A stretch of 64,000 nucleotides of DNA, taken from the NCBI GenBank assembly GCA_003151975.1, contig PLZD01000067.1:1143-65142 (forward strand), written 5' to 3'. The notes below the pieces were generated by a model. The model worked only from the letters and a program-made list of their open reading frames with translations, ran no database searches and was not told the origin of the DNA. Shown here in pieces: positions 16,287 to 39,722 of this stretch (position 1 is the stretch's first letter; each line of letters opens with the position of its first letter). Position numbers and translations under genes: made by a program. The stretch comes from Elusimicrobiota bacterium (GTDB lineage: Bacteria; Elusimicrobiota; Elusimicrobia; UBA1565; UBA9628).

Positions 16287-16759
16287 ACCCGGTGAGGCTC
16301 CTCGTCATTTTCTTCGCGGCGATGGTCGCTCAATGGTGGTGGATGACGCATTTCTCTATTTTCGGCCTGGCGCCCCAGCTTCTCTTGGTGCTGACGGTCG
16401 CCTTGGCGGCGCGCTACGGCGCCTTGTGGGGGATGAGCGCCGGTTTCCTGTGGGGCCTGTTCCTCGACCTCATGAGCCCCCGCCTTTTCGGGGCCAACGC
16501 CTTGGCCTTCACTTGGATCGCTTGGGGCACCGGCTCGGTGCGCCGCCAGATCGACGTCGCCGGCCTGGGGCCGCAGGCCGTGGTCGTCGTCGCGATGACC
16601 TGGGCCTACTTCCTTCTGCTCGGCGTGCTGGGTCTGATCTTTTCGAAGAGCTTTTTTTGGGTGGGCTTGCCGGCGTTCTGCCTCGATCCGTTCTACAATG
16701 CCGTGGTGACGACGGTCTTATTCGCGCTCTGGACGCCGCGCTGGGAGCATCGAAGGTGA
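16283..16759 (+). CDS. mreD: rod shape-determining protein MreD
   Basis: 158 aa with about 5 hydrophobic segments. It has an ATGA overlap with mreC and the expected synteny. Confidence 0.8.
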   Translation: MNPVRLLVIFFAAMVAQWWWMTHFSIFGLAPQLLLVLTVALAARYGALWGMSAGFLWGLFLDLMSPRLFGANALAFTWIAWGTGSVRRQIDVAGLGPQAVVVVAMTWAYFLLLGVLGLIFSKSFFWVGLPAFCLDPFYNAVVTTVLFALWTPRWEHRR

Positions 16760-16802
16760 CCGAAGGAAATGGTTTGACTCCGAAGGATATGGGTAGAAAA
16801 CC

Positions 16803-20008: not shown

Positions 20009-20023
20009 TCACTGGAGAACATC

Positions 20024-23811: not shown

Positions 23812-23812
23812 A

Positions 23813-24616
23813 ATGAAGAAAAGCCAACGCCCTATCGGCGTTTTCGACTCCGGCATCGGGGGCTTGACCGTACTCTCGGCGCTGGCGCGCCGCATGCCCA
23901 ACGAGCACCTGATTTATTTCGGAGACACGGCGCACGTTCCTTACGGTTCAAAATCCAAGGAGGCCGTGACGCGATTCTCGCTGGCCATCGCGCGCTTCTT
24001 GGAATCCAAGGGCATCAAGCTGCTCGTCGTGGCCTGCAACACCTCATCGGCCCTGGCCTTGCGCGAATTGAAGAGCGCGTTGAAAATCCCGGTTTTGGGC
24101 GTCATCGAGCCCGGCGCGCGCGCGGCGGCCGCCGCGACGCGCAACGGGAGAGTCGCGGTCATCGGCACCGAGGCGACCGTCCGCTCCGGCGCTTATGTCG
24201 CCGCGCTCAAGAAGAAGCGCCCCGGCATCCACGCGAAGGCACTGGCCTGCCCGCTCTTCGTGCCGCTTGTGGAGGAGGGTTGGTGGGGCCATCGCGTGAC
24301 CTCGGAGGTCGCCAAGGATTACCTCAAGCCCTTGCGCGGTTCGGGGATCGACGCGCTGATCCTTGGCTGCACGCATTACCCGCTTTTGAAGAAGACGATC
24401 TCCAGGGTCGTGGGCCCTAAAGTTCGGCTCATTGATTCGGCCGAGCAGACGGCCGTCGAGACCGAGGAACTGCTCGACGAGATGGGGCTCAAGCGCCGCG
24501 GCGGTCCCGGGAGACGCGAGTTCTACGCCTCGGACGCTCCGAAGCGCTTCTTGAGGATCGCCCGTCTGTTGGGCGTGAAGGCAAAATCGGTCAAGCTGCA
24601 CCCATTTGACGCATGA
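23813..24616 (+). CDS. murI: glutamate racemase
   Basis: ATG 23813 lies 1 nt after the amidase stop and gives MKKSQRPIGVFDSGIGGLTV. The catalytic Cys contexts VVACNTSSA and LGCTHYPLL are present. The track start at 23714 lies inside the amidase gene. Confidence 0.94.
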   Translation: MKKSQRPIGVFDSGIGGLTVLSALARRMPNEHLIYFGDTAHVPYGSKSKEAVTRFSLAIARFLESKGIKLLVVACNTSSALALRELKSALKIPVLGVIEPGARAAAAATRNGRVAVIGTEATVRSGAYVAALKKKRPGIHAKALACPLFVPLVEEGWWGHRVTSEVAKDYLKPLRGSGIDALILGCTHYPLLKKTISRVVGPKVRLIDSAEQTAVETEELLDEMGLKRRGGPGRREFYASDAPKRFLRIARLLGVKAKSVKLHPFDA

Positions 24617-25197
24617 AAGAATACGCGAAGCTCGTAGGTCTTGCGAAATCCGCCGTCGACAACGGCTTCTCGCGCGTGGGCAAGTCGCTCGACAAGGGCA
24701 GCCCCGTCGACGAGGCGCTGATGCTGCTGTCGGCGCGCGCCGTCGCGGTCGGCAACGCGATCGTCGTGCTGGCGCAAGAGTCGCTGTCCAACGAAGCCTT
24801 GCCGCTCTTGCGCTCGCTCTTTGAACTTGCGGCCGCTATGCGCTGGCTCGTCGCGGAGGACCGCGAGAAGCGCGCGCGGGAAGTGCTCGCCGAGGCGCGC
24901 GCCTCCGATTGGGAGATGCTGTGGAAGACTTCCCGACTCAAAGAGCGGCTGCCGCTGCTTGAGTTGGCCGACGGCGACGCGCGGCGCGCGCTTGGGTTAT
25001 GCGTGGATTTCATGTGCGCCAACACGCAAGGCCTGCCGTGGGGGCACGTTTTTGAAGGGAACAAGGAGACCGGAGTAACGTCGGCCGAGCTCTTGAGGCT
25101 CGCGGCGATCGCCTCCGGTCATGTGGTCAAAGCTTTGGACGCGCGGTGGCCAGGGAAGTTCGAGGGCGCCGAACAACTGTGGGAGAAGGCAAAATGA
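24613..25197 (+). CDS. hypothetical protein (helical, no recognisable motif)
   Basis: 194 aa with ATGA overlaps at both ends (to murI and to rho). Its codon usage matches its neighbours. No signal peptide or TM was seen. Confidence 0.6.
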   Translation: MKEYAKLVGLAKSAVDNGFSRVGKSLDKGSPVDEALMLLSARAVAVGNAIVVLAQESLSNEALPLLRSLFELAAAMRWLVAEDREKRAREVLAEARASDWEMLWKTSRLKERLPLLELADGDARRALGLCVDFMCANTQGLPWGHVFEGNKETGVTSAELLRLAAIASGHVVKALDARWPGKFEGAEQLWEKAK

Positions 25198-26342
25198 TGA
25201 GCGACGACAGAAGGGGCGGGCAAGGCGGTCAGGGCGGCGGAGGCGGCGGCCAGGGCGGGCAAGGCGGCGGATCCGGTGGATCCGGCGGGTCCGGCGGGTC
25301 CGGCCAGCATCACAACCGCGGCGGGCGCAACCGTCACCGGCACCACCGCGGCGGCCAAGGCGGCGGCCAGCAAGGCGGCGGCCAGCAGGGCGGCGGCCAG
25401 CACTTCAATCGCCCTCCCCAGCACAACCAGGGCAACCGCAGCAATCCCTCGCCCGCGCGCGCCTCGTCCAACGTCGTCAGCGACATCGAACGCGCCTACA
25501 ACGCCAAGACCCCGATCGATCCCAAGGAGTGGATCCAGCTGGAAAAAGGCAGCACGGAAATCTCGATGCGCGCCATGGACCTGCTCTGCCCGATCGGCCG
25601 CGGCACGCGCGGCCTCATCGTCGCGCCCCCAAAGGCCGGCAAAACGACCTTCCTCAAGCAGATCTCGAACGCCGTCCACGGCTTCGACCCGAAGATCAAG
25701 CAGTACTGCCTGCTCATCGACGAGCGCCCCGAGGAGGTCACGGATTTTAAGCGTTCGGTGCCCGCCGAGGTCTTCGCCTCCTCCTCCGACCAGAGCTACG
25801 AGAAGCACATCACGGTCGCCAACGAGCTCATCAAGCTCGCCGTCGAGCAGGCCAGCACCGGGCAGGACGTGTTCATACTGCTGGATTCCCTGACGCGGTT
25901 GGCCCGCGTGCACAACCAGTTCGCCACGGGCAATCGCACGATGACCGGCGGCTTGGATTCGCGCGCGATGGAAGTTCCGCGCCGATTTTTTGGCGCCGCG
26001 CGCAAGCTCGAGGAGGGAGGGTCTCTCACCATCTTGGCGACCATACTCGTCGACACCGGCTCGCGCATGGACGAGGTCATCTTCCAGGAGTTCAAGGGCA
26101 CTGGCAACATGGAACTCGTGCTCTCGCGTCAGGCCGCCGACATGCGCATCTTTCCGGCGATGAAGGTGCGCGAGTCGGGCACGCGCAAGGAAGAAAAGCT
26201 CCTGCCGCCCGCGATCATCGAGGGCGTCTGGAAGCTGCGCCGGGCTCTGGCCGACAAGGGCGACATCGACGCGTTGAAGTCCCTCGTCGAGGCCCTGCGC
26301 GTGCACAAGACCAACCACGCCTTCCTCGCGGCTCTCAAGTAA
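25194..26342 (+). CDS. rho: transcription termination factor Rho, atypical: G/Q/S/R/H-rich N-terminus instead of canonical N-terminal RNA-binding domain
   Basis: 382 aa from the ATG in the ATGA overlap. The ATPase core is clear ([64 protein letters not shown]). The first roughly 95 aa are low complexity ([30 protein letters not shown]...). Confidence 0.9.
   Translation: [382 protein letters not shown]
25269..25304 (+). repeat. 9-nt tandem repeat x4 (GGATCCGGT-like; encodes GSG units) inside the rho low-complexity region
   Basis: The four consecutive units ggatccggt ggatccggc gggtccggc gggtccggc were read directly from the sequence. Confidence 0.85.
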
Positions 26343-26719
26343 TGAAGAAGGCGATCGCGACTCAGAACGCGCCGCAGGCGATCGGGCCTTACTCGCAGGC
26401 CATCGAGTCCGGCGGCTTTGTGTTCGCGTCTGGGCAGATTCCGCTCGATGCTTCAGGAAAGATGGTGGAAGGCGGGGTGCGCGAGCAGACCGAGCGGGTC
26501 CTGTGCAACCTCGCCGCGATCCTGGCGCAAGCGGGATTGGGCCTGGAGCACGTCGTCAAGACGACCGTCTTCATGACAAACCTAGGTGAGTTCGCCGCGA
26601 TGAACGAGGTCTACGCGAAGCATTTTGCGGCGCCGCATCCAGCGCGAGCGACCGTGCAGGTGGCGGCGCTTCCCAAAGGCGCCGCCGTCGAGATCGAGGC
26701 GGTCGCCTCCAGAGCGTGA
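26342..26719 (+). CDS. ridA: RidA/YjgF family reactive-intermediate deaminase
   Basis: 125 aa with APQAIGPYSQAIESGGFVFASGQIPLD and ARATVQVAALPKGAAVEIEA. It has a TAATG overlap with rho. Confidence 0.92.
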   Translation: MKKAIATQNAPQAIGPYSQAIESGGFVFASGQIPLDASGKMVEGGVREQTERVLCNLAAILAQAGLGLEHVVKTTVFMTNLGEFAAMNEVYAKHFAAPHPARATVQVAALPKGAAVEIEAVASRA

Positions 26720-27813
26720 TCCCAATGAAAAGAATCGCTTGTCTGCTCGTCTTGCTGGGCGCGGTCGGACCACTGCGCGCCGAAGAGCCGAAGAAGGCCT
26801 TTATTTTCGTGGTTTCCGCGGGCGCCGGATCGCAGATTTTTCCGCCGAGCGAACTGGAACGCCGGCGTGACGCGGAAAAGAATTACTACGAGGCGCAAGG
26901 CTACAAGGTCGAGGTCGCGCCCGCCACGCAGGACGCTGTGTTCGACGCGATCGCCTCCGGTGCTTCCGCGATTTCGTATCTCGGCCCCGCGGCAGAAGGC
27001 GCCCTCGAGCCGACGTTGTTGGGCCTCAACGCCCGCGTTTGGAAGGGTGCGGCCGCAGTTTATTATTCGATGAAGCACGCCGACGTGCCTAAGAACCTCG
27101 GCCTGCAAGTCCTGCGTAATTTCTCGTGTCGCAGTCTCTGGGACAACAACCTCGCGGAGCTTTTCGTGCGGCCCGGCGGCCATTACTTCGGGGCCAAGAG
27201 CGACCTCGCCCACGATCCTTCCTACGAGAAGCTGGCGGGTGTCGTCGAAGGCTGCACGCAAGGCGGCGACTGCCGCTGCGCGACCGTGGGTCTATACTCG
27301 GCCGGCGATCTCAGGGATTACGAACTGCCTCGCCGCAAAGCGGAAACCGCGGCCGTTGCTTCCGCGGCGCCGTCTGTCCCCGTGATGCCGGCCGCGCTCG
27401 CGCCCGCAGCACTGCCGGCGGTGGCAGTACCGCAGGCGGCGGTGCCGCAGGCGGCGGTGCCGCAGGCGGCATCGCCGGCGCTGCCGCCGGGCCCGCTGTC
27501 GGGGACTTGGTACATTTCGCCCACCGGCACCATCGTGATCGACCAGCGCGGCGAGCAGGTCAGCTGGGTGCTGACGGTTCCCGACCGCAGCGTGCGCCAC
27601 GAGGGCCACGGCACTTTTTCCAACTCGATGCTCAACGGCGCCTTTGAGGACGCCGAGGACCCCACCGGCCTGCGCGCCGGCGAGTTCAAGGGTTTCCAGC
27701 TGACCTCCGAGGGCAAGCTTTGCGGCCAGGTGCGCTGGTGGAACAAGATTGATGCGGCGCGCGGCTCAGGGATGGGTTTCGACTGTTACTCGCGGCAGCC
27801 GCTTAAGAAGTAA
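26716..27813 (+). CDS. secreted hypothetical protein, two domains joined by an A/P-rich repeat linker
   Basis: 365 aa with a GTG start in a GTGA overlap with ridA (alternative ATG at 26725, MKRIACLLVLLGAVGPLRAEE, which is a signal peptide). The C-terminal domain is Cys-containing. No family was recognised. Confidence 0.65.
   Translation: MIPMKRIACLLVLLGAVGPLRAEEPKKAFIFVVSAGAGSQIFPPSELERRRDAEKNYYEAQGYKVEVAPATQDAVFDAIASGASAISYLGPAAEGALEPTLLGLNARVWKGAAAVYYSMKHADVPKNLGLQVLRNFSCRSLWDNNLAELFVRPGGHYFGAKSDLAHDPSYEKLAGVVEGCTQGGDCRCATVGLYSAGDLRDYELPRRKAETAAVASAAPSVPVMPAALAPAALPAVAVPQAAVPQAAVPQAASPALPPGPLSGTWYISPTGTIVIDQRGEQVSWVLTVPDRSVRHEGHGTFSNSMLNGAFEDAEDPTGLRAGEFKGFQLTSEGKLCGQVRWWNKIDAARGSGMGFDCYSRQPLKK
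27424..27480 (+). repeat. 15-nt tandem repeat, about 3.5 copies (encodes AVPQA units)
   Basis: The units gcagtaccgcaggcg gcggtgccgcaggcg gcggtgccgcaggcg gcatcgccggcg were read directly from the sequence. Confidence 0.85.
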
Positions 27814-28852
27814 GCTCGGGGAGTTCGAAAAAGAAGGCTGTTCCTTTTCCCGTCGTAAATCCTATGCGCCCGCCGTGTCGCTCGACGATGGCCTTCGAAA
27901 TCGCCAAGCCCAGGCCGGAGCCGCCCTTCTTGTGGCCTTCGGCCTGCGCGAACCGTCCGAAAATCTTATCGCGAAAGGTCTCCGGTATGCCGGGACCGTC
28001 GTCGCGGATGCTCACGCGAAGTGACGCGGCGTCGCGCTCGATGCTCGCGCGTACCACGCCGCCCTCGGGTGAGAACTTGACGGCATTCGAGAGCAGATTG
28101 GTCAACACCTGGCGCAGGCGGTCGGGGTCGCCCATGACCTTGGCGCCGGGAAGTCCGGCCCTCATTTCGAGGGTGACGCCGGTCTTGGCGCCCAGCCCGC
28201 GCGCCGATTCGAGAATGGACTCCGTCAACGCCGAGAGCTCGAGCGGCTCGAGCTTGAGCGGCGCGGCCCCCGAGGTCAGCTTTTCGATGCTGAGATAATC
28301 GTTTATGAGATCCAGCATGAACTGGCTGTTGCGCATGGCCATGCCCAGCATCTTCTCCGCCGTGTCGGGGTGGCGGCGGGCCAGCTCAAGCGAGCCGATG
28401 ATCGCGGTCAGCGGCGAGCGGAGCTCGTGGGTGGCGAGTGCTATGAGCTCGTCCTTCATGGCCTCGACCTTGCGCCGCTCGGTCACGTCGCGGAAGACCG
28501 CGCGTACGTACTCGGCTTTGCCCGCGTCGTCGAAGCGGTAGTTGATGAAGCCCTCGACCTGGAACTCTGTCCCATTCTTGGAAACGAAGATGCGCTGAAT
28601 CTCGCGCAAGGTCTCTCCCGCGGCCAGCTTCGCCTCGTTTTCCGCGACCAGCACCCGCTGGTCGGGGTGCAGGACGTCGTGGGCGTTCATGCTGTTGATC
28701 TCGTCCTGTGAGTAGCCCAGCTTCTCGCGCCAGGCGCGGTTGACGTAAAGGATGCGGCCCCCGGGCGTGGCGAGGATGACGAGGTCGTCGATGTTCTCGA
28801 GCAAGTCCTCGAGGCGCTGGGTCTCCGCGGCGGGAAGTTGGGCGAGCGTCAT
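27803..28852 (-). CDS. cytoplasmic PAS-domain sensor histidine kinase
   Basis: 349 aa with no TM. It has a PAS region (ILATPGGRILYVNRAWREKLGYSQDEI), an H-box (ATHELRSPLTAIIGSLELA), an N-box (LTNLLSNAVKFSP) and G-boxes (DDGPGIP, GGSGLGLAI). Confidence 0.92.
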   Translation of the reverse strand: MTLAQLPAAETQRLEDLLENIDDLVILATPGGRILYVNRAWREKLGYSQDEINSMNAHDVLHPDQRVLVAENEAKLAAGETLREIQRIFVSKNGTEFQVEGFINYRFDDAGKAEYVRAVFRDVTERRKVEAMKDELIALATHELRSPLTAIIGSLELARRHPDTAEKMLGMAMRNSQFMLDLINDYLSIEKLTSGAAPLKLEPLELSALTESILESARGLGAKTGVTLEMRAGLPGAKVMGDPDRLRQVLTNLLSNAVKFSPEGGVVRASIERDAASLRVSIRDDGPGIPETFRDKIFGRFAQAEGHKKGGSGLGLAISKAIVERHGGRIGFTTGKGTAFFFELPELTS

Positions 28853-29008: not shown

Positions 29009-32000
29009 TTGCAGTGCAATAATGGGTCTATGTTGCGGCGCTTCATTGCTACCGTTGTCTGCGCGGCCCTTATCGTGGCCTGCCCCGGCATCGAGTCATA
29101 CCACGCGATAGCCGGCGAGCTCGGCGAGATCAATGTTGGCGCGCGGCGCGCGCCCGCCCTTCCCGCTCTGCCGACCGCGATCCTGCCCGGCATCGCCAAC
29201 ATCACCCAGCTCTCGCAGACGCCGGGAAATCTAGCCACGGTCACCGAGGTCGCAACAGTTCATTCCGCGATCGCGACGCCTGGCGCGGCCGCTGCAAACA
29301 CTTCTTCGATCTCGAACGCCTCGGCGGTTGCTCAGCCTGAGACGGCGGAGGTTGAAAATGCGGGAAAACTGATCACACCGGAGGTCTTGGCGGGACTCAA
29401 CGCCACGACTAAGGGCGTCTCGGAAGCCGTCGAGGCCCTCGCCAAGCCCGATCTGAGCGCCGAGGGCGCGCACGCCGTCGGCGTCCGCCTCGAAGGCGCG
29501 GTTTCGCCTGCGGTCTCCGCCGAAGAGATTTCTCCCGCGGCCTCGGGCTTCTCAAATTTCTCGGGTAATGTTCATGCCAAGCAGAAGCGCGGCCTCGTCC
29601 AGTCCGTCGGCTTCTTTGCGAAAGCCAAGGGCTTCGTCCGCACAATTTCGGTCGCCGCGGTTCTGACGATCGCAACACTCGGCGGCCCCGTGCTGGCCCA
29701 GACCGTTCCGCAGGGCCCGGCGCCGGCCGGCCAGCAGCAGCAGGTTCCAGCTCCCGCCCAGCCCGGCGCGCCCGTGCTCGGCGCGCCTCAAGACACGGTC
29801 CAGGCCGAGGAGCCCGCGCCCAAGCAAATCGGACCCATCTCGGCGACCATCGCGATCCAAGGCCAGAACATGACGGTCGGCGATCGCTTCCACATCGCGC
29901 TCACGCTGACCAACAGCTCGGATAAGCCGGTCACGATCGCCAATCTGCGGAACTCGCTCAACGACGCCCTGCCCACGGACGTCGAGCTGCAGATGAACTC
30001 AGGGTCGGACGCCGTCACGCTAAAGCCCGGCGAGACGCAGACGGTCGTCTTCGAGACCATCGCGTTTGCCTCGGGCGACATCGCGATGGGCGGCCCGCTG
30101 ATTTTCAACGCGCAGCTCAATGGCCAGGCCGCCGAGATGCAGGCCATACTCGCCGACGGCGCGATCACGGTCAAGTCGGTCCTCACGCCCGATTGGAAGA
30201 AGATCGGCTTCAAGGATATCTACAGCGTCCTGCGCCAGGACGTGCCGCTCTGGGCGTGGCTGGCGGCGATCCCGCTGCTGCTGTCGCTGCTCGTCGCCGG
30301 CGAGCGCGTGCTCGCGGCCCAGCGCCGCGGCGCCAAGGTCCTCTCGGTGGGCCAGCCGCTGCTGGTCTCGACGCGCGCGCGCATGAAAGCGCTCGAAGGC
30401 GCCTTGGAGCAAAACGACGCGGCGTTCTACGCCGAGTACTACTCCATACTCTCGACTTTCCTGATCGACTCGCACGGCTTGTCCGTCAAGGAGCGCGACG
30501 CCAAGACCTTGATCTCGGACCTCAAGAAGGCTAAGAAGCTTTCCTCGGGCCAGCTTAAGGTCGCCTCAGATTTAGCGTTCTCAGCGGAAGCCGCGCGGTT
30601 CGGCGGCCGCGCTACGACGGCCGAGCAGCGCTCCGCCGACCTCGCGGCTCTGTCGTCTCTCGTGGACAACATCGCGGGTGCTTCGAAGACGCAGAAAACC
30701 GAAGGCCTACACAGCCTCGGCGGGCCGATGACGGGCCTGCAGTTCGGCAACCCCTACGCGCTGCTGCTCTTTTTGCCGCTGGCTGGGTATCTGGCTTGGA
30801 AGTTCATAGGCCGCAAGCAGGCCAGCGCCCAAGCCGCTTACCCGCTCTCGACGCTTTCCTCGGTCTCGCCGCGCAAGAGTTTCCGCCAGCGCTTCGGTTG
30901 GCTGACGAAGGGCCTTCGCGCCGCCGCCGTTTCCTTAATTCTGCTCGGCATCGCCGATCCCCAACTCGGCGTGCGCCGCCAGGAGACCATCACGCCGTCG
31001 ACCGACACTGAGCTCATCATCGACGTGTCGGGTTCGATGGACGAAGCCTTCAACGGTTCCGGCAGCCCCAGCAAGCTGGTGGCCGCCGAGGAGGCGATGA
31101 AGGCCTACATCAACGAGCAGCGGCGCGGCACGCAGAACCGCGTGGGCTTGGTCACTTTCTCGGACGAGTCTTACGTCGACATCCACCTCACTCAGGACTA
31201 CGACGCGCTGATCGCGCACTTGAAGGAGCTGCATACGATTTCTTCGACGGCGATCGGCAAGGGCATACTGACCGCGACGGGCCAGTTCCTCGAGGCCAAC
31301 GCCTACGAGCTGACCTCGCAGGACGACCCGCGCATCATCGAGGTTCAGCGCCTCATCCGCACCGAAGGCCTCGGCGCCGCTCTCGAGTATGCCAAGCCCT
31401 ACCCGGACCTCATGGACAAGATCGTCCGGCCCGACCGCAAGAAGGTCATCGTCCTTTTCACGGACGGCGAGTCCAACACTGGCCTTGAGCCCATCCCGGC
31501 CTCCGAGATCGCGGCGAAACTTGGCGTGCGCATCTACACGGTCGGCATCGCTCCCAAGGGCGGCACGGGCGTGGGCTACGATGAGAACACGCTGGTCACG
31601 GTGGCCAAGAACACCGGCGCGCAGTTCTTCCGGGCCGATGACGCCGACCGCATGCGCGAGATCCTGCTCGAAATCAATCGCCTCGAGAAGAGCCCGACCA
31701 AGATCGTGTCGGCCGTATCGGTCCAGAGCTACCAGCAATGGTTCATCATGCTGGCGCTGCTGGCGCTGGGCTTGGAGCTTGGCCTGGCCAACACGAGATT
31801 GCGCGTGCTGTCGGGCTTCTTGATGTTCACTTTGCCGTTCGGCAGCGTCGTCAATTTCAACCCGGCGCAGCAGCCTGCCGCGATCGTGCAGACCGTCGAC
31901 GCCCAGGCCCCGGCCGCGGAATCCGCTTTGCCGACCACCGGCGTGCCCGCCGAGGTCGCCGCGGCCAATCTGCTCTTCAACTCGGGCCGGTATGACGAAG

Positions 32001-35000
32001 CGCTCAAGGCCTACGCCAAGGCGCTCGAGAAGTATCCCGACATGGCCGAGCTCTACTACAACATGGGCAACGCCTACTTGAAGCTGGGCGACGTCGACCG
32101 CGCCAAGATCAGCTACGGCAAGTTTTTGAGCCTCAAACCCGACGCGAAGCTGGCTTCGAAGGCGATCTACAACATGGGCAACGCCGCGCTTTCCGCCAAG
32201 GACGTCGAAGGCGCTGTCGACAATTATAAGGAAGCCCTGCGCCGCGATCCGAACAACGACCGCGCCAAGTGGAACCTTGAGGTCATTAAGGCGCTCCAGA
32301 AAGAGCAGCAGCAGCAGCAATCCCAGCAGCAGCAGAAACAGCAGCAGAAGGAAGGCAAGCAGAAGCAGAACGGCAAGCAAAAGCAGAAAGGCGACCAGAA
32401 GGGCGATCAAAAGGGCGACCAGAAGGGCGATCAGAAAGGCGACCAGAAGGGAGACCAAAAGGGCGATCAGCAGGGCAAGCCCGGCGACCAGAAAGGCGAC
32501 GCCCAAGCCAAGCCCGGCGACAAAGAGAAGAGCGGCGCCGACCAGTTGACCGACAAACTCGGCGACCAGGAAAAGAAGGAAGGCGAGGCCGCGCGCAAGG
32601 CCATCCCGCGTAAGGGCGACAAGGTTTGGGGCCTCCTCGGACTGCCGCTGGCGGCCGGCGGCTCAACCGCCTTGGCTTTCGGCTCAGCCTGGATGCTCTG
32701 GGCGCTGGCTTTCGGCCTGCCCGTCGTCGCCGGCCTCATCGCCTACGGCATCCACAAGAAGATTCAAGCCGCCAAGCAGCTGACTCCGGGCACGGCGCCC
32801 GCGGGTTTTGCTTCCTGGTGGGGACGCAACGCTTTCCTGCGCAAGTCGGCGCTGATGATCACGGCGGCAGCCCTCCTTGGCCTGTCAGCGGCCAACCCGA
32901 AGAGCGGCTACAAGGACGAGCGCCTCAACTTCGGCGGCAAGGACATCGAGGTGGTGCTCGATAACTCGCTCTCCATGCTCTACGCCGAGGACGGCCGCGC
33001 CGACCGCACCCGCAAGGAGCTCACCGATTTCATCACGCACATGCAGGGCACCGACCGCATCGGCCTGGTGGTCTTCGCGGGCTCAGCAAGGACCGCGGCG
33101 CCCATCTCAATGGACTACGGCAATTTCGAGTACAAGCTGCAGAGGTTGGAAGTCGAGTCGCGCGGACTTAAATCCGGCTCGGACCTAGCCGCGGCGGTGC
33201 AGTTTGCCGCCAAGTCCTTCGAGGACGTCAAGCAGCTCGAGGGCCGCCAAAGGATCGTCATCATCATCTCCGACGGCGACATTTTCAACGAGGAACTCGA
33301 GGGCGCCGTAAAATCAGCGCAAGAGCACCACATCACGGTCTACACGATCGGCGTGGGCACGCCGGCCGGCTCCAAGATCAAGGTCCCGACCGAGGACGGC
33401 AAGGGCACCGAGTACGTCATCGACGAGAAGACCGGCCAGCCGGCCGTCACGACACTCGTCGAGGAGCCCCTGCGCCAGATCGCCTCGCGCACCGGCGGCG
33501 CCTACTTCCGCGCAGGCTCAGATTCCTCGATGAACCGCATTCTCGAGCAGATTTCGACGCTGCAGAAAGGCGAGAAGGGCGACACGATCAAGTCCCCGCG
33601 CGGCGTGGCGTCATGGTTCTTGTGGCCGACCATGCTCTTGCTGCTGCTCGAGATGCTGCTGCCGAGCAAGTCGGTGCTCAAGGACGACCGCAAAGAGAAA
33701 GCGCGCGGCGTAGCGGTTCTCGGCTTGGCCTCCTTGCCTTTGTCGGGTTATGCTCTGATGCTGCCTTTCGCCGTGCTCACGACCGTCGCCGTGGGCTTGC
33801 TTGCCGCCGACTATTGGAGCGGCGGAGCGATCCGGCGCAAGATCGCCTGGGAGCTCGAGCGCCGCCGCAAGCTCGTGGAAAACGGCGTCTTGACCGACGC
33901 CGCGGGCTTGTTCGATCTGCGCGAGACCGACGCCCCGAAGCTGTCGGCCTTCCTCAAGTCTTGGAGCGAGGCCGATGAGGCTGGAAAGAAAATCTTGTCC
34001 AACGAGGCGGTCTTAGACGAACAGCTGTGGCGCCAGAAGCTCGCCGCGGCCTTCGTCTACGGCAGCGCGCCGGAGACGCAGGAAGCGCTGCTCACGATGA
34101 TGGCGCGCACCGCGCAGAAGCGCCTCGAGCCGATGGCTCCGGTCGCCGAGCAGTTGCTCGCGCGGCGCGGCCGCCTGCCCTGGCTCGACCATGTCGACGC
34201 GGCGCGGCGCCTCGCGCGCCTCGCGCAGGCCTTCCTCGATAATTCGAAGCCTGAGAATCACGCCGCTTTGGTTTCGCTGCTCTCTCACCCCGACGCCGAG
34301 GTCCAGCAGGCCGCGCGCCAGGCGTTAGGCAGCGAAGTCCCGGCGCCGGCCCTCAAACGCGGGTTTTTCTTCAACTGGCGCAAATGGCTCTCGGTCGCCC
34401 TCTCGACTCTGATGCTCGCGTCCTCCATGACTTGGGCGGGCTTCTCCGGCTACAAGACGACGCAATTCTTCGAGGAGTCGGCCAAGGCGCGGGACTTCTC
34501 GATGCGGACCTTCTACCGCGAGGACATGTTCGTCTTCTCGGACCACTACGCCGACGACCGCATCACGACCGACGTCCTGCCGGCTCTCAAGGCGTGGCAA
34601 GAGAACCCGCAGTCCGCGGGCGCGGGCCTCGAGCGCGCACTGACGGTTCTCTCGCAGTCCCCCGATCCCAAGGCCGACAACGTGCTCGAAGTTATCCTTA
34701 AGCACGGCGACATCCTGCCGCTCACGCCGAAGGCGGAGTATATGCTGCTCCACACCCTCGTCATCCGCGACAACGACGACGTCTGGCGCTTCATGGAGGA
34801 CCACCTCCAGAAGAGCGCGCGCAACCCGCGCGCCGTCATCCTGATGGAGAAGATGATCGCCATAGGTGCTGCCGAGGGCAACGAGAAGGTTTTCCAGAAC
34901 ATCTTCCATTTCCTGAAGAGCCCCAGCGAGCAGATTCAGCAGGTGGCCACGGCCGCGATCGCGGCGTCGCTGTCGGCGCCCGACAAGGTGGCCAAGATCT

Positions 35001-38000
35001 TCGACCGCCTGACCGACGTGCAGTCGCGCTACGCTCAGGACCCCGAAATGAATTTGTGGGTGGAAAACTTCGTGCTCCAGCGTCTGGCGACGGCCGAGGC
35101 CAAGGACATCGACTCGGCCAAGGCGCGGGGCCTCATCGACAAGATTTTGGACGCGGGGTCGCCGTGGGCGGCGATGCGCGCTCAGGCGCTGGCCGCCCAA
35201 GCCGCGCAGCAAGCCCAGCAGCAGCCTCAAGCCGGCGCCGCCCCGGGCGCCGCTCCCCAGGCCCAGCAGCAAGCTCAGATTCCGCCGCCTTTCATCTTGA
35301 TCGTGTTCGGCCAGATGAACGACGCCGAGCAAGCTTTCGTTTCGAACGGCCAGGCCGTCCCCGGGCCGCTGGCCGACATGGTCAAGTACGCGGTCAACCG
35401 CACGATGACGCAGCTCATTAAGGAGGGCGAGGCGAAGTTCGGCGATTTGCACAAGCGTCTCATCGAAGCCGGCGTCGTCCTGCCCGATACTGAGAACTCC
35501 TACGGCGGCGGCTACGACGACGACTACGAGGGGCGCGGTTGGGGCGGCTACCGCGGCGGTCGCGGCGGCAGTTATTCCAGCACGTCGCAGAACTACCGCG
35601 AGCTCTACAAGCTCCAGCACATCCGCGATTTCGCCAAGCAGCTTTCCGAGGCCGCCCAGACGAGCGCCGCGGCCGACAGCGCATCGGTGAAGCCCGAGAC
35701 CCTCGAGTATCTCGACCGCGCCGCCCAGGCTTTGAAAATCATGGAGCCTCTGGGGCAAGCGTCGGGCATGCTCGATGGCGGCAGCGTGGGGGAGAAAGCG
35801 GCCGACGAGGTCAACAAAGTCCTCGACGCCACGGCCTCCAAGCTCACCGGCAGCGGTTTCCTCAACGCCCTGCGCGCCAAAAACGTCGCGCCCAGCAACG
35901 GGGTGGATTCCGGAGCCGCGCGCTTCCTCGAGACCTACACTTTCGAGAACATCGAGGCGATCAAGGCCGTGATCCGGGAGATCGCGGCATCCGGCAAGGG
36001 CTGGGACTACCAGGGCAACCAGCGGACTTTGCTGCTCAGCGAGAAGCAGGCGCTGGCCGCGGCCCTCGACGAGCTCACCGCCGCCGAAGCCAAGGTCTAT
36101 CCGGACAAGGCTAAGCCCGCGGCAGCGAGCGATTTCTGGAAGACGCTGGAGACGCCCGGCGAAGAGAGCCTGGCGTTGGCGCGCTTGAGCGTGGGCGCCG
36201 CCGCGCACGCGGCCGATGCCGAGTTCCAGCTGCGCGCGCTCAACTACCTGACGGCGCACGCCGACAAGAATTCCAATCCCGACGAGCTTTCCGAGATCAT
36301 CGCCCAACTGGCCAAGGCCGTCGAGAAAACCGACAAGGCCCCCGAGGTCCTCTCGATTCTCGCGCGCGTCGTCGACGGCAGGGCAGATAGCGATCCGCTG
36401 ACCGCCGCCATCCGAAAAGAGTATCAGCGCCAGGCGTCCGTCACGATCGCGGACGCGGTCTCAGGCTTCGGAAACCTGAGCCAGAAGCTGATCGATCTCA
36501 AGGTCCGGCCTTCCTCTTATTCCGATAAGCCGTACAAACTGATCGATCTCAAGGTTTTCCTTAAGGCGGTCGAGGACGAGGCGGCCGCCGTGGCCGGGCC
36601 GAATATGAGCGAGGACGCAAAGAAAGCGGCCGCTCGGGCACGGCTGATGGTGCCCAAGATCATCGAGCTGGGGACCAAGGTCGGCATCACGCCGGGAGAC
36701 TCCCCGGCCGATCTCGTCGCCGGTCCGGTCAACGATATCCTGCACCAGGGCTGGCAGCTCTTCGACGGCTCGACCTTCCTCGAGGCCATGCGCCGGCAGG
36801 GACTCGAGCCCGCGGGCAGCTCGACCGACATCTACACGGGCTACTACCAGGCTTACTCCAAGGACAGCCTCGAGAAGATCCTGAAATGGCTCAAGAACGT
36901 GAAGGCTTTGGGCGACGGCTGGAAATCGCAAGACATGTCCACCAAGCCCCTGAGCGACAAGGAGAAGGAATACCTCGACAAGGCCATCAAGGGCATCCAG
37001 GACCAGATCGACAACTATCCGAAAGCCGGGCCCGCCGCGACCGAAAAGAAAGTGTTCCACGGCATGGCGCTCGTCGGCTTGGGAACGCTCGGCACGGCGA
37101 TTTCCTGGATCGGAACCGGCCTGCTGATCGCGGCCGCGGCGGTGGTGATCTACTACGTGGTCCGCGCGGCGCTTAAGAAGACGAAGGCCGCGAGTCTGAC
37201 CCCCGTTTTCAACGCGGCGGCCGAAAGAACCGCGCCGGGACTCGACGGCAGATTTAAGAAAATCGAGATCACGGCCAAGCGCGTGGCCAACTCGGTGGCC
37301 GGCGGCAACTTTCGATCCGTTTTCATCGGCGCGGGCGGCACGGATTTCGCGGAAAGCAAGCCCTACGCCGGCGAGGACCTGCGCGACGTCGACTGGAAGA
37401 CCACCGCGCGCCAGGGCGAGCTCTACGCCAAGAAGTACGAGCTCGAAAAAGACATGCCGCTCATGCTGCTCATCGATCTCTCGCGCTCGGCCCAGTTCGG
37501 CACGCGCGGCGAATCCAAACGTGGCGTTATTGAAGACGCTTCCTCGGTTCTCGCGCTGGCGGCCGCCAACACCAACCTGCGCGTCGGCGCCATCATCTTC
37601 TCCGACAAGGTCGAGGCCTACATCCCGCCGCAATCCGGCGTCAACCACGCCCGCGAGATCGTGCGCCGCGTGCTCGCGTTTGATCCTAAGGGCCAAGCCA
37701 CGGACCTCAAGCCTGCGCTCGGTCTAGCGCTTAAGGAACTGCGTTCCCGGTCCATGATCGCGGTCGTCTCGGATTTCATCGCTCCTGATTTCAAGAATTC
37801 GCTGATGGCGCTCTCAGCGCGCCACGACCTGCGCCTGATCCGCGTCTCCGATCCCGCCGAGACCGCGCCCCTGCCAAAGGTGGGCCTGGTGCTCGTGCGC
37901 GACGCCGAGACCGGCGAGGTGCGCTACGTCGACACTTCCGATACGCGCTTCCGCACCGAGCACGCCGCCTTGCTGGCCAAGCAGGAAGCCGCCCGCCAGG

Positions 38001-38098
38001 CCGCTTTTACCGCCGCGCGCACCGTGCCGCTCACGCTTTCGACGGAAGGGGACCCTCTCGAGGCCCTGGCCGTGTCGCTTAGCCCCAAGAAAAAATGA
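29009..38098 (+). CDS. giant (3,029 aa) multi-pass membrane protein: fused BatD/DUF4381-like + BatA-like vWA + TPR + BatB-like vWA + about 1,100-aa unknown module + DUF58-like domain
   Basis: The frame is uninterrupted for 9,090 nt. An alternative start at 29030 gives MLRRFIATVVCAALIVAC, which is signal/lipobox-like. There are three DxSxS MIDAS-type motifs: DVSGS at 31022-31036, DNSLS at 32960-32974 and DLSRS at 37475-37489. It also has a BatA-type N-terminus (FGNPYALLLFLPLAGYLAW), TPR repeats, and a DUF58 signature (YAGEDLRDVDWKTTAR). The stop overlaps the moxR start. Confidence 0.85.
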   Translation: MQCNNGSMLRRFIATVVCAALIVACPGIESYHAIAGELGEINVGARRAPALPALPTAILPGIANITQLSQTPGNLATVTEVATVHSAIATPGAAAANTSSISNASAVAQPETAEVENAGKLITPEVLAGLNATTKGVSEAVEALAKPDLSAEGAHAVGVRLEGAVSPAVSAEEISPAASGFSNFSGNVHAKQKRGLVQSVGFFAKAKGFVRTISVAAVLTIATLGGPVLAQTVPQGPAPAGQQQQVPAPAQPGAPVLGAPQDTVQAEEPAPKQIGPISATIAIQGQNMTVGDRFHIALTLTNSSDKPVTIANLRNSLNDALPTDVELQMNSGSDAVTLKPGETQTVVFETIAFASGDIAMGGPLIFNAQLNGQAAEMQAILADGAITVKSVLTPDWKKIGFKDIYSVLRQDVPLWAWLAAIPLLLSLLVAGERVLAAQRRGAKVLSVGQPLLVSTRARMKALEGALEQNDAAFYAEYYSILSTFLIDSHGLSVKERDAKTLISDLKKAKKLSSGQLKVASDLAFSAEAARFGGRATTAEQRSADLAALSSLVDNIAGASKTQKTEGLHSLGGPMTGLQFGNPYALLLFLPLAGYLAWKFIGRKQASAQAAYPLSTLSSVSPRKSFRQRFGWLTKGLRAAAVSLILLGIADPQLGVRRQETITPSTDTELIIDVSGSMDEAFNGSGSPSKLVAAEEAMKAYINEQRRGTQNRVGLVTFSDESYVDIHLTQDYDALIAHLKELHTISSTAIGKGILTATGQFLEANAYELTSQDDPRIIEVQRLIRTEGLGAALEYAKPYPDLMDKIVRPDRKKVIVLFTDGESNTGLEPIPASEIAAKLGVRIYTVGIAPKGGTGVGYDENTLVTVAKNTGAQFFRADDADRMREILLEINRLEKSPTKIVSAVSVQSYQQWFIMLALLALGLELGLANTRLRVLSGFLMFTLPFGSVVNFNPAQQPAAIVQTVDAQAPAAESALPTTGVPAEVAAANLLFNSGRYDEALKAYAKALEKYPDMAELYYNMGNAYLKLGDVDRAKISYGKFLSLKPDAKLASKAIYNMGNAALSAKDVEGAVDNYKEALRRDPNNDRAKWNLEVIKALQKEQQQQQSQQQQKQQQKEGKQKQNGKQKQKGDQKGDQKGDQKGDQKGDQKGDQKGDQQGKPGDQKGDAQAKPGDKEKSGADQLTDKLGDQEKKEGEAARKAIPRKGDKVWGLLGLPLAAGGSTALAFGSAWMLWALAFGLPVVAGLIAYGIHKKIQAAKQLTPGTAPAGFASWWGRNAFLRKSALMITAAALLGLSAANPKSGYKDERLNFGGKDIEVVLDNSLSMLYAEDGRADRTRKELTDFITHMQGTDRIGLVVFAGSARTAAPISMDYGNFEYKLQRLEVESRGLKSGSDLAAAVQFAAKSFEDVKQLEGRQRIVIIISDGDIFNEELEGAVKSAQEHHITVYTIGVGTPAGSKIKVPTEDGKGTEYVIDEKTGQPAVTTLVEEPLRQIASRTGGAYFRAGSDSSMNRILEQISTLQKGEKGDTIKSPRGVASWFLWPTMLLLLLEMLLPSKSVLKDDRKEKARGVAVLGLASLPLSGYALMLPFAVLTTVAVGLLAADYWSGGAIRRKIAWELERRRKLVENGVLTDAAGLFDLRETDAPKLSAFLKSWSEADEAGKKILSNEAVLDEQLWRQKLAAAFVYGSAPETQEALLTMMARTAQKRLEPMAPVAEQLLARRGRLPWLDHVDAARRLARLAQAFLDNSKPENHAALVSLLSHPDAEVQQAARQALGSEVPAPALKRGFFFNWRKWLSVALSTLMLASSMTWAGFSGYKTTQFFEESAKARDFSMRTFYREDMFVFSDHYADDRITTDVLPALKAWQENPQSAGAGLERALTVLSQSPDPKADNVLEVILKHGDILPLTPKAEYMLLHTLVIRDNDDVWRFMEDHLQKSARNPRAVILMEKMIAIGAAEGNEKVFQNIFHFLKSPSEQIQQVATAAIAASLSAPDKVAKIFDRLTDVQSRYAQDPEMNLWVENFVLQRLATAEAKDIDSAKARGLIDKILDAGSPWAAMRAQALAAQAAQQAQQQPQAGAAPGAAPQAQQQAQIPPPFILIVFGQMNDAEQAFVSNGQAVPGPLADMVKYAVNRTMTQLIKEGEAKFGDLHKRLIEAGVVLPDTENSYGGGYDDDYEGRGWGGYRGGRGGSYSSTSQNYRELYKLQHIRDFAKQLSEAAQTSAAADSASVKPETLEYLDRAAQALKIMEPLGQASGMLDGGSVGEKAADEVNKVLDATASKLTGSGFLNALRAKNVAPSNGVDSGAARFLETYTFENIEAIKAVIREIAASGKGWDYQGNQRTLLLSEKQALAAALDELTAAEAKVYPDKAKPAAASDFWKTLETPGEESLALARLSVGAAAHAADAEFQLRALNYLTAHADKNSNPDELSEIIAQLAKAVEKTDKAPEVLSILARVVDGRADSDPLTAAIRKEYQRQASVTIADAVSGFGNLSQKLIDLKVRPSSYSDKPYKLIDLKVFLKAVEDEAAAVAGPNMSEDAKKAAARARLMVPKIIELGTKVGITPGDSPADLVAGPVNDILHQGWQLFDGSTFLEAMRRQGLEPAGSSTDIYTGYYQAYSKDSLEKILKWLKNVKALGDGWKSQDMSTKPLSDKEKEYLDKAIKGIQDQIDNYPKAGPAATEKKVFHGMALVGLGTLGTAISWIGTGLLIAAAAVVIYYVVRAALKKTKAASLTPVFNAAAERTAPGLDGRFKKIEITAKRVANSVAGGNFRSVFIGAGGTDFAESKPYAGEDLRDVDWKTTARQGELYAKKYELEKDMPLMLLIDLSRSAQFGTRGESKRGVIEDASSVLALAAANTNLRVGAIIFSDKVEAYIPPQSGVNHAREIVRRVLAFDPKGQATDLKPALGLALKELRSRSMIAVVSDFIAPDFKNSLMALSARHDLRLIRVSDPAETAPLPKVGLVLVRDAETGEVRYVDTSDTRFRTEHAALLAKQEAARQAAFTAARTVPLTLSTEGDPLEALAVSLSPKKK
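29790..30700 (+). other. BatD/DUF4381-like module of the giant ORF
   Basis: A beta-rich segment (ISATIAIQGQNMTVGDRFHIALTLTNSSDKPVTI...) is followed by a TM (VPLWAWLAAIPLLLSLLVAG, 30241-30300). A helical segment with FYAEYYSILSTFLIDSHGLSVKERDAKTL...AARFGG comes after it. The assignment relies on my memory of the family pattern and is not HMM-verified. Confidence 0.5.
30730..31815 (+). other. BatA-like vWA module (TM-TM-vWA-TM)
   Basis: The module has FGNPYALLLFLPLAGYLAWKF, then LRAAAVSLILLGIADPQLG, then the MIDAS motif DVSGSMDE, then VIVLFTDGESN, and ends in the TM QQWFIMLALLALGLELGLA. Confidence 0.8.
31955..32290 (+). other. TPR repeats (BatC-like)
   Basis: Three to four 34-residue repeats are present (AANLLFNSGRYDEALKAYAKALEKYPDMAELYYNMGNAYLKLGDVDRAKISYGKFLSLKPD...AVDNYKEALRRDPNN). 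They are followed by a Q/K-rich tail. Confidence 0.85.
32387..32470 (+). repeat. 12-nt in-frame tandem repeat x7 encoding (KGDQ)7
   Basis: The unit aaaggcgaccag and synonymous variants repeat seven times, then degenerate copies (QGKPGDQKGDAQAKPGDKEK) run to about 32530. The repeat is embedded in a Q/K-rich tract spanning 32290-32600. Confidence 0.9.
32620..33680 (+). other. BatB-like vWA module
   Basis: Two hydrophobic segments lead into ...SAANPKSGYKDERLNFGGKDIEVVLDNSLSMLYAEDGRADRTRKEL, then VIIISDGD, then a terminal TM (WFLWPTMLLLLLEMLL). Confidence 0.8.
35370..36125 (+). repeat. copy 1 of a diverged internal protein-level duplication in the giant ORF
   Basis: This copy aligns by eye with copy 2. 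The matching pairs are FGDLHKRLIEAGV / FGNLSQKLIDLKV, YKLQHIRDFAKQL / YKLIDLKVFLKAV and GSGFLNALRAKNVAPS / GSTFLEAMRRQGLEPA. Two more pairs are GKGWDYQGNQRTLLLSEKQALAAALDEL / GDGWKSQDMSTKPLSDKEKEYLDKAIKGI and YPDKAKPAA / YPKAGPAA. Confidence 0.65.
36395..37040 (+). repeat. copy 2 of the internal duplication
   Basis: See copy 1. This copy also contains a short direct repeat, KLIDLKV, twice (36484-36504 and 36538-36558). Confidence 0.65.
37250..38095 (+). other. DUF58-like (vWA-fold) C-terminal module
   Basis: The module reads FRSVFIGAGGTDFAESKPYAGEDLRDVDWKTTARQGELYAKKYELEKDMPLMLLIDLSRSAQFG...AVVSDF. It is preceded by a TM at 37056-37175. Confidence 0.8.
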
Positions 38099-39615
38099 AC
38101 CGAGGTAACGCCATGAAGACGACGCTCTCGCAAATGATGAAGACTGCGGCCTTGCTGGGCCTGTTCGCCCTGCTCTGTCCCCGCGCGGCGCACGCTGTTG
38201 ATTTCGCCGAGCGCTCCGCGGTGACGCCCGGCGTCCAGCTCAAGCTTGTGACGCTCGACCCGAAGATCGGCGCGCTCGGCAAGCCCGGCGACGGCATCAG
38301 CATCGACCCCCTCGCGGCCCAGCTTCACAATGTCCTGACCGCGGCCGGCCTCTTGACCGAGGCCCCCGGCCAGATCGCGATCCTCACGATCCCTCAGCCC
38401 TTGGCGACGATTTCCAACGGCCCTAAAGCCGCCAACGACGTCGGGACTCCGGCGGAGGCCTCGCAGGCGCGTCTTGCCGAGATCACTAAGACGGTTGTGG
38501 ATATGCCCGACATCTCGAAGGCCGAAGGCACGGATGCCTCCGGCGCTGGACGCACGCTCTCCGACGCCGTCACCGGAGAGAAGACGGTCCACGCCGGCGC
38601 CGTCGAGGCCGAGGCGACGCCGACGGCTCCCGCTAAGCCGCTCAAGCAGCAAATCACCGAGGGCAAAGCCGTCGTCGACGGCATCCGCTCCGAAGTCAGC
38701 AAGGTCATCGTCGGCCAGAATGAAATGATCAACTCGATCATCATGACGATGATCGCGCGCCAGCACGTTCTGCTCGAAGGTCTGCCCGGCGTCGGCAAAA
38801 CCGAAACCGCCAAGGCCTTCGCCGACGCGATCGACGGCTCGTTCCAGCGCGTGCAGGGCACTTCCGACAAGCTGCCCTCCGACATCCTCGGCACCGAGGT
38901 CCTTCAAGAGGACCCGGCCACCGGCAAGAAGTTCTGGGAGCTCTCTAAGGGCCCCATCTTCACGAACATCCTGCTCGCCGACGAAATCAACCGCATGCCG
39001 CCCAAGGCCCAGGCGTCCTTGCTCGAAGCCATGGCCGAAGGCCGCGTGACCATCGGCCGCCAGACGGTCGACCTGCAGCGCTTCACGGTGCTCGCCACGC
39101 AAAACCCCGTCGAGCAGGACGGCACCTACCGCCTGCCCGAGGCGCAGCTCGACCGCTTCATGTTCAAGGTGCTCGTGCCTCAGCCGAGCGCGTCGGATTT
39201 GAAGGTCATCATGGAGCGCAACCGGTCGAAGGAGAACCGCCCGAAAGCGTCCAAGGTCACGAACTTGGCGCAGTTGGACGACATCCGGCGCACCGCCGAG
39301 CAGATCCCGATGGACGCTCAGATCGAGGACTACATCATCAAGATCGTCATGGCCGCCAAGGAGCACGCCGATCTCAAGGATAGTGTGGAATACAGCGTCT
39401 ACACGCGCGCGGCGATCTTCATGGCGCAGGCCGCCCGCATCCACGCCTTGATGGAAGGGCGCGATTGGGTGAGCCCCGCGGATGTGCGCGCGGTAGCACC
39501 CCTCGTCATGCGGCACCGCATCGTGCTCAACTACCAGGCCGCCGGCACGACGTCCGACCAGGTCATCACGAAGATTCTCGACTTGGTCGCTCCGCCGAAG
39601 GTCGCGGCCAAGTAA
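38095..39615 (+). CDS. MoxR-family AAA+ ATPase with about 190-aa N-terminal extension
   Basis: 506 aa. The core starts at about 38668 with Walker A (GLPGVGKT, 38779-38802), Walker B (LLADEINR), [24 protein letters not shown], and a C-terminal lid. The N-terminus has the hydrophobic segment [21 protein letters not shown] followed by an A/P/T/E-rich stretch. It has an ATGA overlap with the giant ORF. Confidence 0.9.
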
Positions 39616-39638: not shown

Positions 39639-39666
39639 GAGGCCCCCGAAAGGGGGCCTTTGTTTT
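39639..39666 (+). terminator. Rho-independent terminator downstream of moxR
   Basis: The stem GGCCCCC (39641-39647) pairs with GGGGGCC (39652-39658) around a GAAA tetraloop, and TTTGTTTT follows. Confidence 0.85.
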
Positions 39667-39722
39667 GCCGGCAGAGTTTTCTCATATACAACAGACCGGC
39701 TTGTTCGTATGATCTGTGCTGC

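Follow-up and report, generated by a model that had tools for sequence, protein, structure and literature searches.

An open reading frame (ORF) of 3,029 codons and the ATPase gene directly 3′ of it, in a 64,000-nt stretch of DNA from an Elusimicrobiota bacterium (assembly GCA_003151975.1, contig PLZD01000067.1, positions 1,143 to 65,142; the whole of this stretch is referred to as the window), are probably the form that the Bat/MoxR-vWA envelope system takes in Elusimicrobiota, cast as a polytopic inner-membrane protein of about 3,000 amino acids (aa) and a co-transcribed MoxR gene. Bat/MoxR-DUF58-vWA-TPR operons are widespread, occurring in Bacteroidota, in spirochaetes, in Francisella and in many bacteria besides, and links to virulence and to tolerance of stress have been drawn for them. 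In about 25 years no molecular mechanism has, to our knowledge, been put forward for them. As judged from profile comparisons, the units of the giant protein are homologous, in order, to BatD (its C-terminal third), BatA, BatC-type TPR, BatB and DUF58. With a lineage-specific module lying between BatB and DUF58, the order along the DNA reads BatD-like, BatA, TPR, BatB, orphan module, DUF58 and then the MoxR gene.

The giant ORF (29009..38098; this and all features described below are on the forward strand) runs in one frame from a TTG and has colinear homologues. On the source contig, ENA ERZ28653421 (WOOD18-1 scaffold_941, 114.5 kb), the gene is called from the ATG at 29030, its probable start, for a product of 3,022 aa. 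The ORF is genuine, and it is conserved, with purifying selection on each of its units. The G+C content of third codon positions (GC3) in its frame is 0.75–0.94 in each 300-nt block, in keeping with the single open frame with G/C-rich third positions that the initial annotation had described, and at about 38100 the third-position periodicity moves from this frame to that of MoxR. With L003, the closest relative (74% identical in aa), the ratio of non-synonymous to synonymous substitution rates (dN/dS) is 0.22 overall and 0.04–0.48 per unit, the value of 0.48 being that of a low-complexity region at 29111..29623. Both GC3 and dN/dS are of coding type throughout. The source contig, an independent assembly, is 100% identical to window 28113–49615 and carries the giant ORF.

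In a scan that took a single genome for each species there were 27 loci, 25 of them labelled Elusimicrobia or Elusimicrobiota (Ca. Endomicrobium among them), one Gammaproteobacteria and one unclassified; a closed 3.8-Mb chromosome is among the genomes with the giant locus. The same fused architecture is present in related genomes as 18 species-level uninterrupted colinear ORFs, each a single frame of 2,775–3,388 aa, while six of the 27 loci end at a contig edge and three are interrupted. Where both ends are complete (16 ORFs), identity to the window protein is 40–75% in alignments that exceed 2,700 residues. An exhaustive phmmer search with the central segment, aa 1601–2700, against 1.84 billion representatives gave 50 matches, and 11 of these are full-length metagenome giants (2,690–3,461 aa) that align colinearly to 61–89% of the query, the window protein (80–89% in nine of the 11), at 28–49% identity. 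Wherever the available sequence extends far enough, which is so in 20 loci, MoxR is immediately downstream of the giant. The source names on family fragments (few were seen) are ‘hypothetical protein’ or ‘VWA domain-containing protein’, and the full-length giants checked carry none. [Two of the labels deserve a remark. The carrier L022 (CALRXP010000026.1) bears the name Ca. Endomicrobium trichonymphae, and L029 (JACQBD010000095.1), binned as Gammaproteobacteria, is probably a mis-binned Elusimicrobiota contig.]

Identification of the units relied on profiles that were built from 28 family members and searched against the proteins of canonical operons, these being the loci around stand-alone BatA matches with the Bacteroidota locus L030 as reference; E-values are scaled to 1e6 sequences. 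Pfam occurrence was counted in 12 family members and motif conservation in 28 sequences. The C-terminal, vWA-like DUF58 unit (aa 2735–3029, 37211..38095, with DLSRS at 37475–37489) matches Pfam DUF58 (PF01882) at aa 2787–2994 with an E-value of 5e-58, the model being matched in all 12 members, and its profile finds canonical DUF58 at 1e-67 with no next-best match. Upstream of it is a hydrophobic stretch of 37 residues (aa 2686–2722, 37064..37174), which would be one long transmembrane segment or a hairpin.

The BatA unit (aa 576–935, 30734..31813) comprises the transmembrane pair of BatA-N, a first vWA domain (vWA1) with DVSGS at 31022–31036, and a C-terminal transmembrane segment. Its profile matches canonical BatA at 3e-53 versus 3e-25 for BatB, and in a search with the vWA1 profile the closest non-giant relatives are stand-alone BatA proteins. 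Pfam BatA-N (PF07584) is matched in seven of the 12 members, at best with 2.3e-7; the match at aa 577–651 of the window protein is weak (17–21 bits, below the cutoff of 25.9). The BatB unit (aa 1206–1560, 32624..33688) consists of a transmembrane hairpin, a loop, a further transmembrane segment, a second vWA domain (vWA2) with DNSLS at 32960–32974, and a last transmembrane segment. Here the preference is the reverse, the profile of aa 1200–1560 giving 4e-44 and 6.5e-40 with BatB versus 1e-31 with BatA. Pfam vWA/VWA_2 matches in the window protein are at aa ~669–885 and 1312–1455, and vWA is matched in every one of the 12 members. The D, S, T and D of the vWA1 metal-ion-dependent adhesion site (MIDAS) are present in 28 of 28 sequences, and over vWA1, vWA2 and DUF58 the MIDAS residues are kept in 27–28 of the 28. 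Between the two vWA units are the BatC-type TPR repeats (aa 975–1095, 31931..32293), with TPR_1/2/11 Pfam matches at aa 980–1090 and TPR matched in 11 of the 12 members. The profile of aa 960–1100 has the TPR of the BatB+TPR protein as its best match (2.5e-20, versus 3e-6 to 4e-7 for BatE-like TPR). NCBIfam models for Leptospira BatA, BatB (BatB_Lepto, 1e-23) and BatC (BatC_Lepto, 1e-18) also match the giant. A Gln/Lys-rich linker follows the TPR repeats (aa 1096–1205, 32294..32623), and a 12-nt tandem repeat within it, CAGAAGGGCGAC (7.8 copies, 32384–32476), encodes its (QKGD)n part. L012 has a scaffold gap of Ns at the corresponding place, and so the region is hard to assemble. For these parts the initial annotation holds up well. 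Its vWA, TPR, DUF58 and BatA-type domains were all recovered by Pfam where it had put them (BatA-N weakly), and of the three MIDAS strings those at 31022 and 32960 are exactly where it had read them, that at 37475 lying in the range it gave for the DUF58-like domain.

At the other end of the protein the assignments are less sharp. The BatD-like unit (aa 262–575, 29792..30733) has one immunoglobulin-like beta domain, a transmembrane segment (aa 418–436) and a helical tail. By hmmsearch its profile resembles the C-terminal third of BatD at 1.4e-5 and 0.028. With hhalign the probabilities against single BatD sequences are 89% and 69%, with controls below 1%, and the 89% match spans 263 columns that take in the last beta domain, transmembrane segment and tail of BatD. 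Ahead of this unit come two signal-peptide-like segments. The first, S0 (aa 12–30, 29030..29110), carries the family motif (A/S)PGxxxYxAxAQ. It is followed by a poorly conserved low-complexity region of about 170 aa rich in Ala, Val, Ser, Gly, Thr and Pro (aa 35–205, 29111..29623) and then by the second, S1 (aa 212–230, 29624..29707), which has a K/R-rich N-flank. An AxA-Q-type motif is present after S1 in about half of the family, the window having VLA-Q. The lipobox-like start that had been noted is borne out as a signal-like segment with IVAC in the window; its Cys is not conserved, most homologues having (A/S)PG and no Cys there.

The orphan central module (aa ~1565–2685, 33701..37063) is lineage-specific. 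It comprises a transmembrane pair, a helical domain A, a transmembrane segment (aa 1795–1813), a HEAT/TOG-like solenoid B and a region C. Its relatives found by phmmer, about 50, are all within the giant family, and three profiles over aa 1601–2700 have no match among the canonical Bat operon proteins. The same segment has no match in Pfam (17 members scanned), in a PDB profile search or in PADLOC, which agrees with the roughly 1,100 aa that the initial annotation had been unable to assign. An AlphaFold2 (AF2) model of the module has a predicted local distance difference test score (pLDDT) of 89 and a predicted template-modelling score (pTM) of 0.70, the pLDDT of a single-sequence model being 44. 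The predicted fold is an all-alpha HEAT/TOG-like solenoid for which generic solenoid folds are the sole matches. Against solenoids of this type, such as the TOG domains of CLASP and the karyopherins, identity is 6–15% and TM-scores are 0.10–0.16. The modelled likeness is one of fold class only and is evidence of neither homology nor function. Region C, the C-terminal part of the module, contains a new repeat domain of about 150 aa, present in two copies in the window (aa 2226–2374, 35684..36130, and aa 2532–2680, 36602..37048) and in zero to three copies per protein, with a period of about 300 aa; because its copy number varies, much of the variation in giant length is accounted for. The module also occurs on its own. 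Two stand-alone paralogues, P0021 (L033 10001–14593, 1,530 aa) and P0023 (L036 1183–4983, 1,266 aa), each start with a signal-like, low-complexity segment of their own. There are no bat genes near the former, and the latter adjoins two envelope-type genes, one for a TPR protein of 1,063 aa and one for a Big/OmpA protein of 1,022 aa.

Downstream, as had been proposed, is a moxR gene (38113..39615, 500 aa). The product is an MRP-type AAA_3 ATPase, with its AAA_3 core at 38764–39165 and lid at 39379–39576 (Pfam AAA_3 E-value 1e-52, and AAA_lid_2). Over the core, identity to the MoxR of a canonical bat operon is 43%. The bpMoxR model matches it at 6e-12, far more weakly than AAA_3, and there is no propeller domain in the 12 members. 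[A role in anti-phage defence was considered and rejected, PADLOC giving no match for the giant and weak generic AAA matches alone for MoxR.] The initial annotation had the stop codon of the giant overlapping the moxR start for translational coupling. The ATGA is indeed there (38095–38098), its ATG being in frame. However, the conserved start is the ATG at 38113, which is 15 nt past the giant stop and has GAGG upstream, and no overlapping start is present in the closest relative. The MoxR ATG in each of the 20 loci is 2–36 nt after the giant stop, and in 18 of them it is 8–23 nt after it. The overlap is probably incidental and the two genes tightly linked. A terminator had also been noted, and the intrinsic-terminator-like element at 39639..39670 (hairpin 39639–39660, 9 bp of which 7 are G-C, with a T-rich tail) closes the two-gene unit.

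All 20 MoxR sequences begin with a Sec-signal-like N-terminus (MKK, an h-region and usually an AxA-type motif, e.g. ASAQ), then have a low-complexity linker, and only then AAA_3. In the window the signal-like segment and linker occupy 38113–38665, the linker being about 160 aa. Such an N-terminus on an AAA+ ATPase is paradoxical. That of the giant is in the same style, with a second signal-like segment in addition; BLASTP of the giant N-terminal extension against that of MoxR gave no significant match.

In the Bacteroidota reference locus, L030, the order is MoxR, DUF58, a hypothetical protein (hyp305), BatA, BatB+TPR, BatD and TPR. With canonical operons of this kind (the B. fragilis batA-E type) the giant locus shares AAA_3 MoxR, DUF58, BatA-N with its vWA, a second vWA flanked by transmembrane segments, TPR, and a beta/transmembrane/tail unit that resembles BatD; the MIDAS motifs are kept and BatA is ahead of BatB. 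It differs in that all the non-ATPase parts, for which other bacteria have 5–7 separate genes, are a single polypeptide, in that an orphan module of about 1,100 aa is inserted, and in the signal-like, low-complexity N-terminal extensions of the giant and its MoxR. MRP-type MoxR is usually first in DUF58/vWA/TPR operons (PMC11834572), whereas here it is last, with DUF58 C-terminal in the giant. The BatD-like unit is truncated and at the front, TPR is ahead of vWA2, and BatE/SH3 is lacking. The description of the locus as an entire Bat system in inverted order consequently needs amendment on both counts. BatE has no counterpart, and of BatD the last beta domain, the transmembrane segment and the tail are all that is represented, while, with BatA still ahead of BatB, the BatD-like unit moved to the front and the DUF58/MoxR pair moved 3′ and swapped, the arrangement is a reshuffle and not an inversion.

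Fusion of Bat components is not in itself new. The Bat proteins have been proposed to act as one complex (PMC3557215), and partial fusions are known in the BatB-BatC of L. biflexa, in Borrelia BB0170 (BatD+TPR+SH3), in Francisella and in Spirochaeta thermophila (PMC3557215, PMC5700661); the BatB+TPR protein of L030 is a further case. Like the giant, these have adjacent bat genes in one ORF and were taken as support for a single Bat complex. The published fusions join two neighbouring components, whereas the giant joins at least five units, DUF58 and the new module included. The Rosetta-stone fusion that had been claimed is genuine and conserved, with MoxR adjacent and an extra module. In the literature searched no description of a whole-system Bat fusion with DUF58 was found, and the initial annotation, too, knew of no described single-polypeptide version.

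Topology was modelled heuristically, from family-averaged hydropathy and counts of K/R in the flanks of hydrophobic segments (positive-inside), with the BatA-type vWA of Borrelia BB0173, which is periplasmic by experiment (PMC5700661), as anchor. From the BatA unit onwards a self-consistent model would place vWA1, vWA2 and central B and C outside, and the TPR and Q/K linker, central A and DUF58 inside. In an alternative, central B and C would be inside. The BatA- and BatB-type vWA domains are probably periplasmic, as in BB0173. Like the MoxR-vWA chaperone pairs NorQ/NorD, RavA/ViaA and CbbQ/CbbO, the locus has a MoxR-class AAA+ gene beside that of a vWA/MIDAS partner, which forms the bridge to a target (PMC13036017, PMC9976466). 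Unlike them, the partner here is a DUF58-type vWA on a polytopic membrane scaffold. NorD engages the pore of NorQ with its vWA (PMC13036017), and the analogy with MoxR/vWA pairs has also been drawn here from PMC9976466. By that analogy the C-terminal DUF58 would be the cytoplasmic docking site of the MoxR hexamer. An ATP-driven pull or twist on DUF58 could then be passed through the adjoining transmembrane segment or segments to the scaffold, and the vWA, TPR and solenoid modules may bind and remodel an envelope client. Fusion would impose 1:1 stoichiometry and co-assembly. That all the parts are one assembly serviced by MoxR is a reasonable proposal, and the biological role may, as proposed for Bat, be in stress or aerotolerance.

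Several points weigh against the identification of the locus as a Bat system working in this manner. The link to BatD depends on the hhalign values against single sequences. Of the BatD/DUF4381-like unit in the initial annotation, the BatD part stands as a likeness to the C-terminal third, with Pfam BatD (PF13584) and DUF4381 (PF14316) each matching none of the 12 members, and DUF4381 having no match at E ≤ 5 within aa 240–575 of the window protein. BatE (TPR + SH3) is absent, there being no SH3 family in the Pfam matches of the 12 members. A functional signal on MoxR would put the ATPase across the membrane from ATP and from DUF58. The heuristic topology is ambiguous at the N-terminus, at aa 933–951 and at aa 2686–2722. 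The mechanism is argued by analogy, and the full-length product is a predicted one. Two long contigs show frameshifts, L018 with five scattered frame changes and L023 (the same contig as L035) with one in mid-vWA2 that the gene caller read as two genes. A 3.5-kb contig, L002 (JGI 3300037222, Ga0395691_013136), is 99.94% identical to the window and lacks TC at 37477–78, within the DLSRS of DUF58, which shifts the frame; either an error of assembly or a pseudogene at strain level could explain this 2-nt deletion (TC slippage).

Among other accounts of the intact frame, the one that survives best, unlikely as we think it, is that the product is a polyprotein, one chain cut by signal peptidase or another protease into Bat-sized subunits that form a conventional multi-subunit complex by an unusual biogenesis. 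The tandem signal-peptide-like segments S0 and S1, the conserved AxAQ after the former and the AxA-Q-type motif after the latter in about half of the family, and the long low-complexity linkers between some units (aa 35–205 and 1096–1205) would all suit cleavage. However, most of the junctions (BatD tail/BatA, BatB/central and central/DUF58) are a transmembrane segment or a short conserved linker with no evident cleavage motif, and the conserved two-gene unit has no protease gene.

An envelope scaffold or adhesin unrelated to Bat, in which vWA, TPR and solenoid would be generic interaction modules, MoxR/DUF58 would aid folding or assembly and the likeness to Bat would be one of architecture alone, we regard as improbable. 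In its favour, over a third of the protein is orphan module, which can stand alone, by TPR and Big/OmpA genes in L036 or away from bat genes in L033, and the variation of its repeat from zero to three copies is as in surface proteins. However, it is a specific Bat component, and not generic vWA or TPR, that each unit matches best, as with the BatA unit (3e-53 versus 3e-25) and the BatB unit (4e-44 versus 1e-31), and the BatA-N transmembrane hairpin and the pairing of an MRP-type MoxR with DUF58 are hallmarks of bat operons.

Finally, that chimeric assembly or collapsed frameshifts made the long frame in an organism with separate bat genes, for which the TC deletion in L002, the frame changes in L018 and L023 and the interruption of L012 could be cited, is effectively refuted by one open frame over all junctions in 18 independent species-level assemblies, by coding-type GC3 and dN/dS along the whole ORF, and by the position of all four interruptions (in DLSRS, in mid-vWA2, scattered, and, for L012, at the scaffold gap, where Ns fill the Q/K repeat), none of which is at a boundary between Bat-type units. 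A pseudogene is ruled out, together with artefact, by the intact frames in many species, dN/dS and these same positions. L012 (Ns), L023 (mid-vWA2 frameshift) and L018 (five scattered frame changes) were likewise rejected as natural split variants.

For the Bat reading, a conserved fusion of BatD-like, BatA, BatC-like, BatB and DUF58 units is strong comparative evidence for a single membrane assembly, and it suggests DUF58 as the link to MoxR. A two-gene system with fixed stoichiometry could suit structural work. As a client or adaptor of the Bat machine, the solenoid module of this lineage is a candidate, and the signal-like N-terminus on an AAA+ ATPase poses a specific, testable question of where the ATPase is located. 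It is doubtful, though worth stating, that the solenoid/repeat module could be the long-missing working end or client-binding arm of Bat and that the signal-like, low-complexity N-termini shared by the giant, MoxR and the stand-alone paralogues are a device of this lineage to tether the ATPase to the membrane, or even to export it, beside the scaffold, the whole being a new membrane-integrated MoxR machine and more than a concatenated Bat operon.

The surroundings of the two genes are partly conserved. Upstream, the order at window 22207–27813 (Amidase_3, Asp/Glu racemase, DUF5677, ATP-synt_ab-like, L-PSP and a hypothetical gene) is shared with positions 1–4942 of L035 (CBDIQC010000001.1), from a distant Elusimicrobiota genome of 3.1 Mb, and a divergent PAS histidine kinase at 27803–28852 is specific to the window in this comparison. 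On the downstream side of the syntenic loci, the giant and MoxR pair alone is conserved. In L035, the region downstream of MoxR (16080–24575) has two giant genes, of 1,622 and >1,701 aa, with near-identical starts, and a Metallophos gene whose product begins with a signal-like stretch rich in Pro and Ala. Among the exported proteins of the window that were checked, two have a plain signal peptide, and in a third, an Rce1/trypsin protein, a low-complexity region comes after the signal peptide. This third protein is the product of a 987-aa ORF at 43564–46527, for which the gene table of the source contig gives an Rce1-like (CPBP) intramembrane protease together with trypsin-like and PDZ parts, an unusual fusion.

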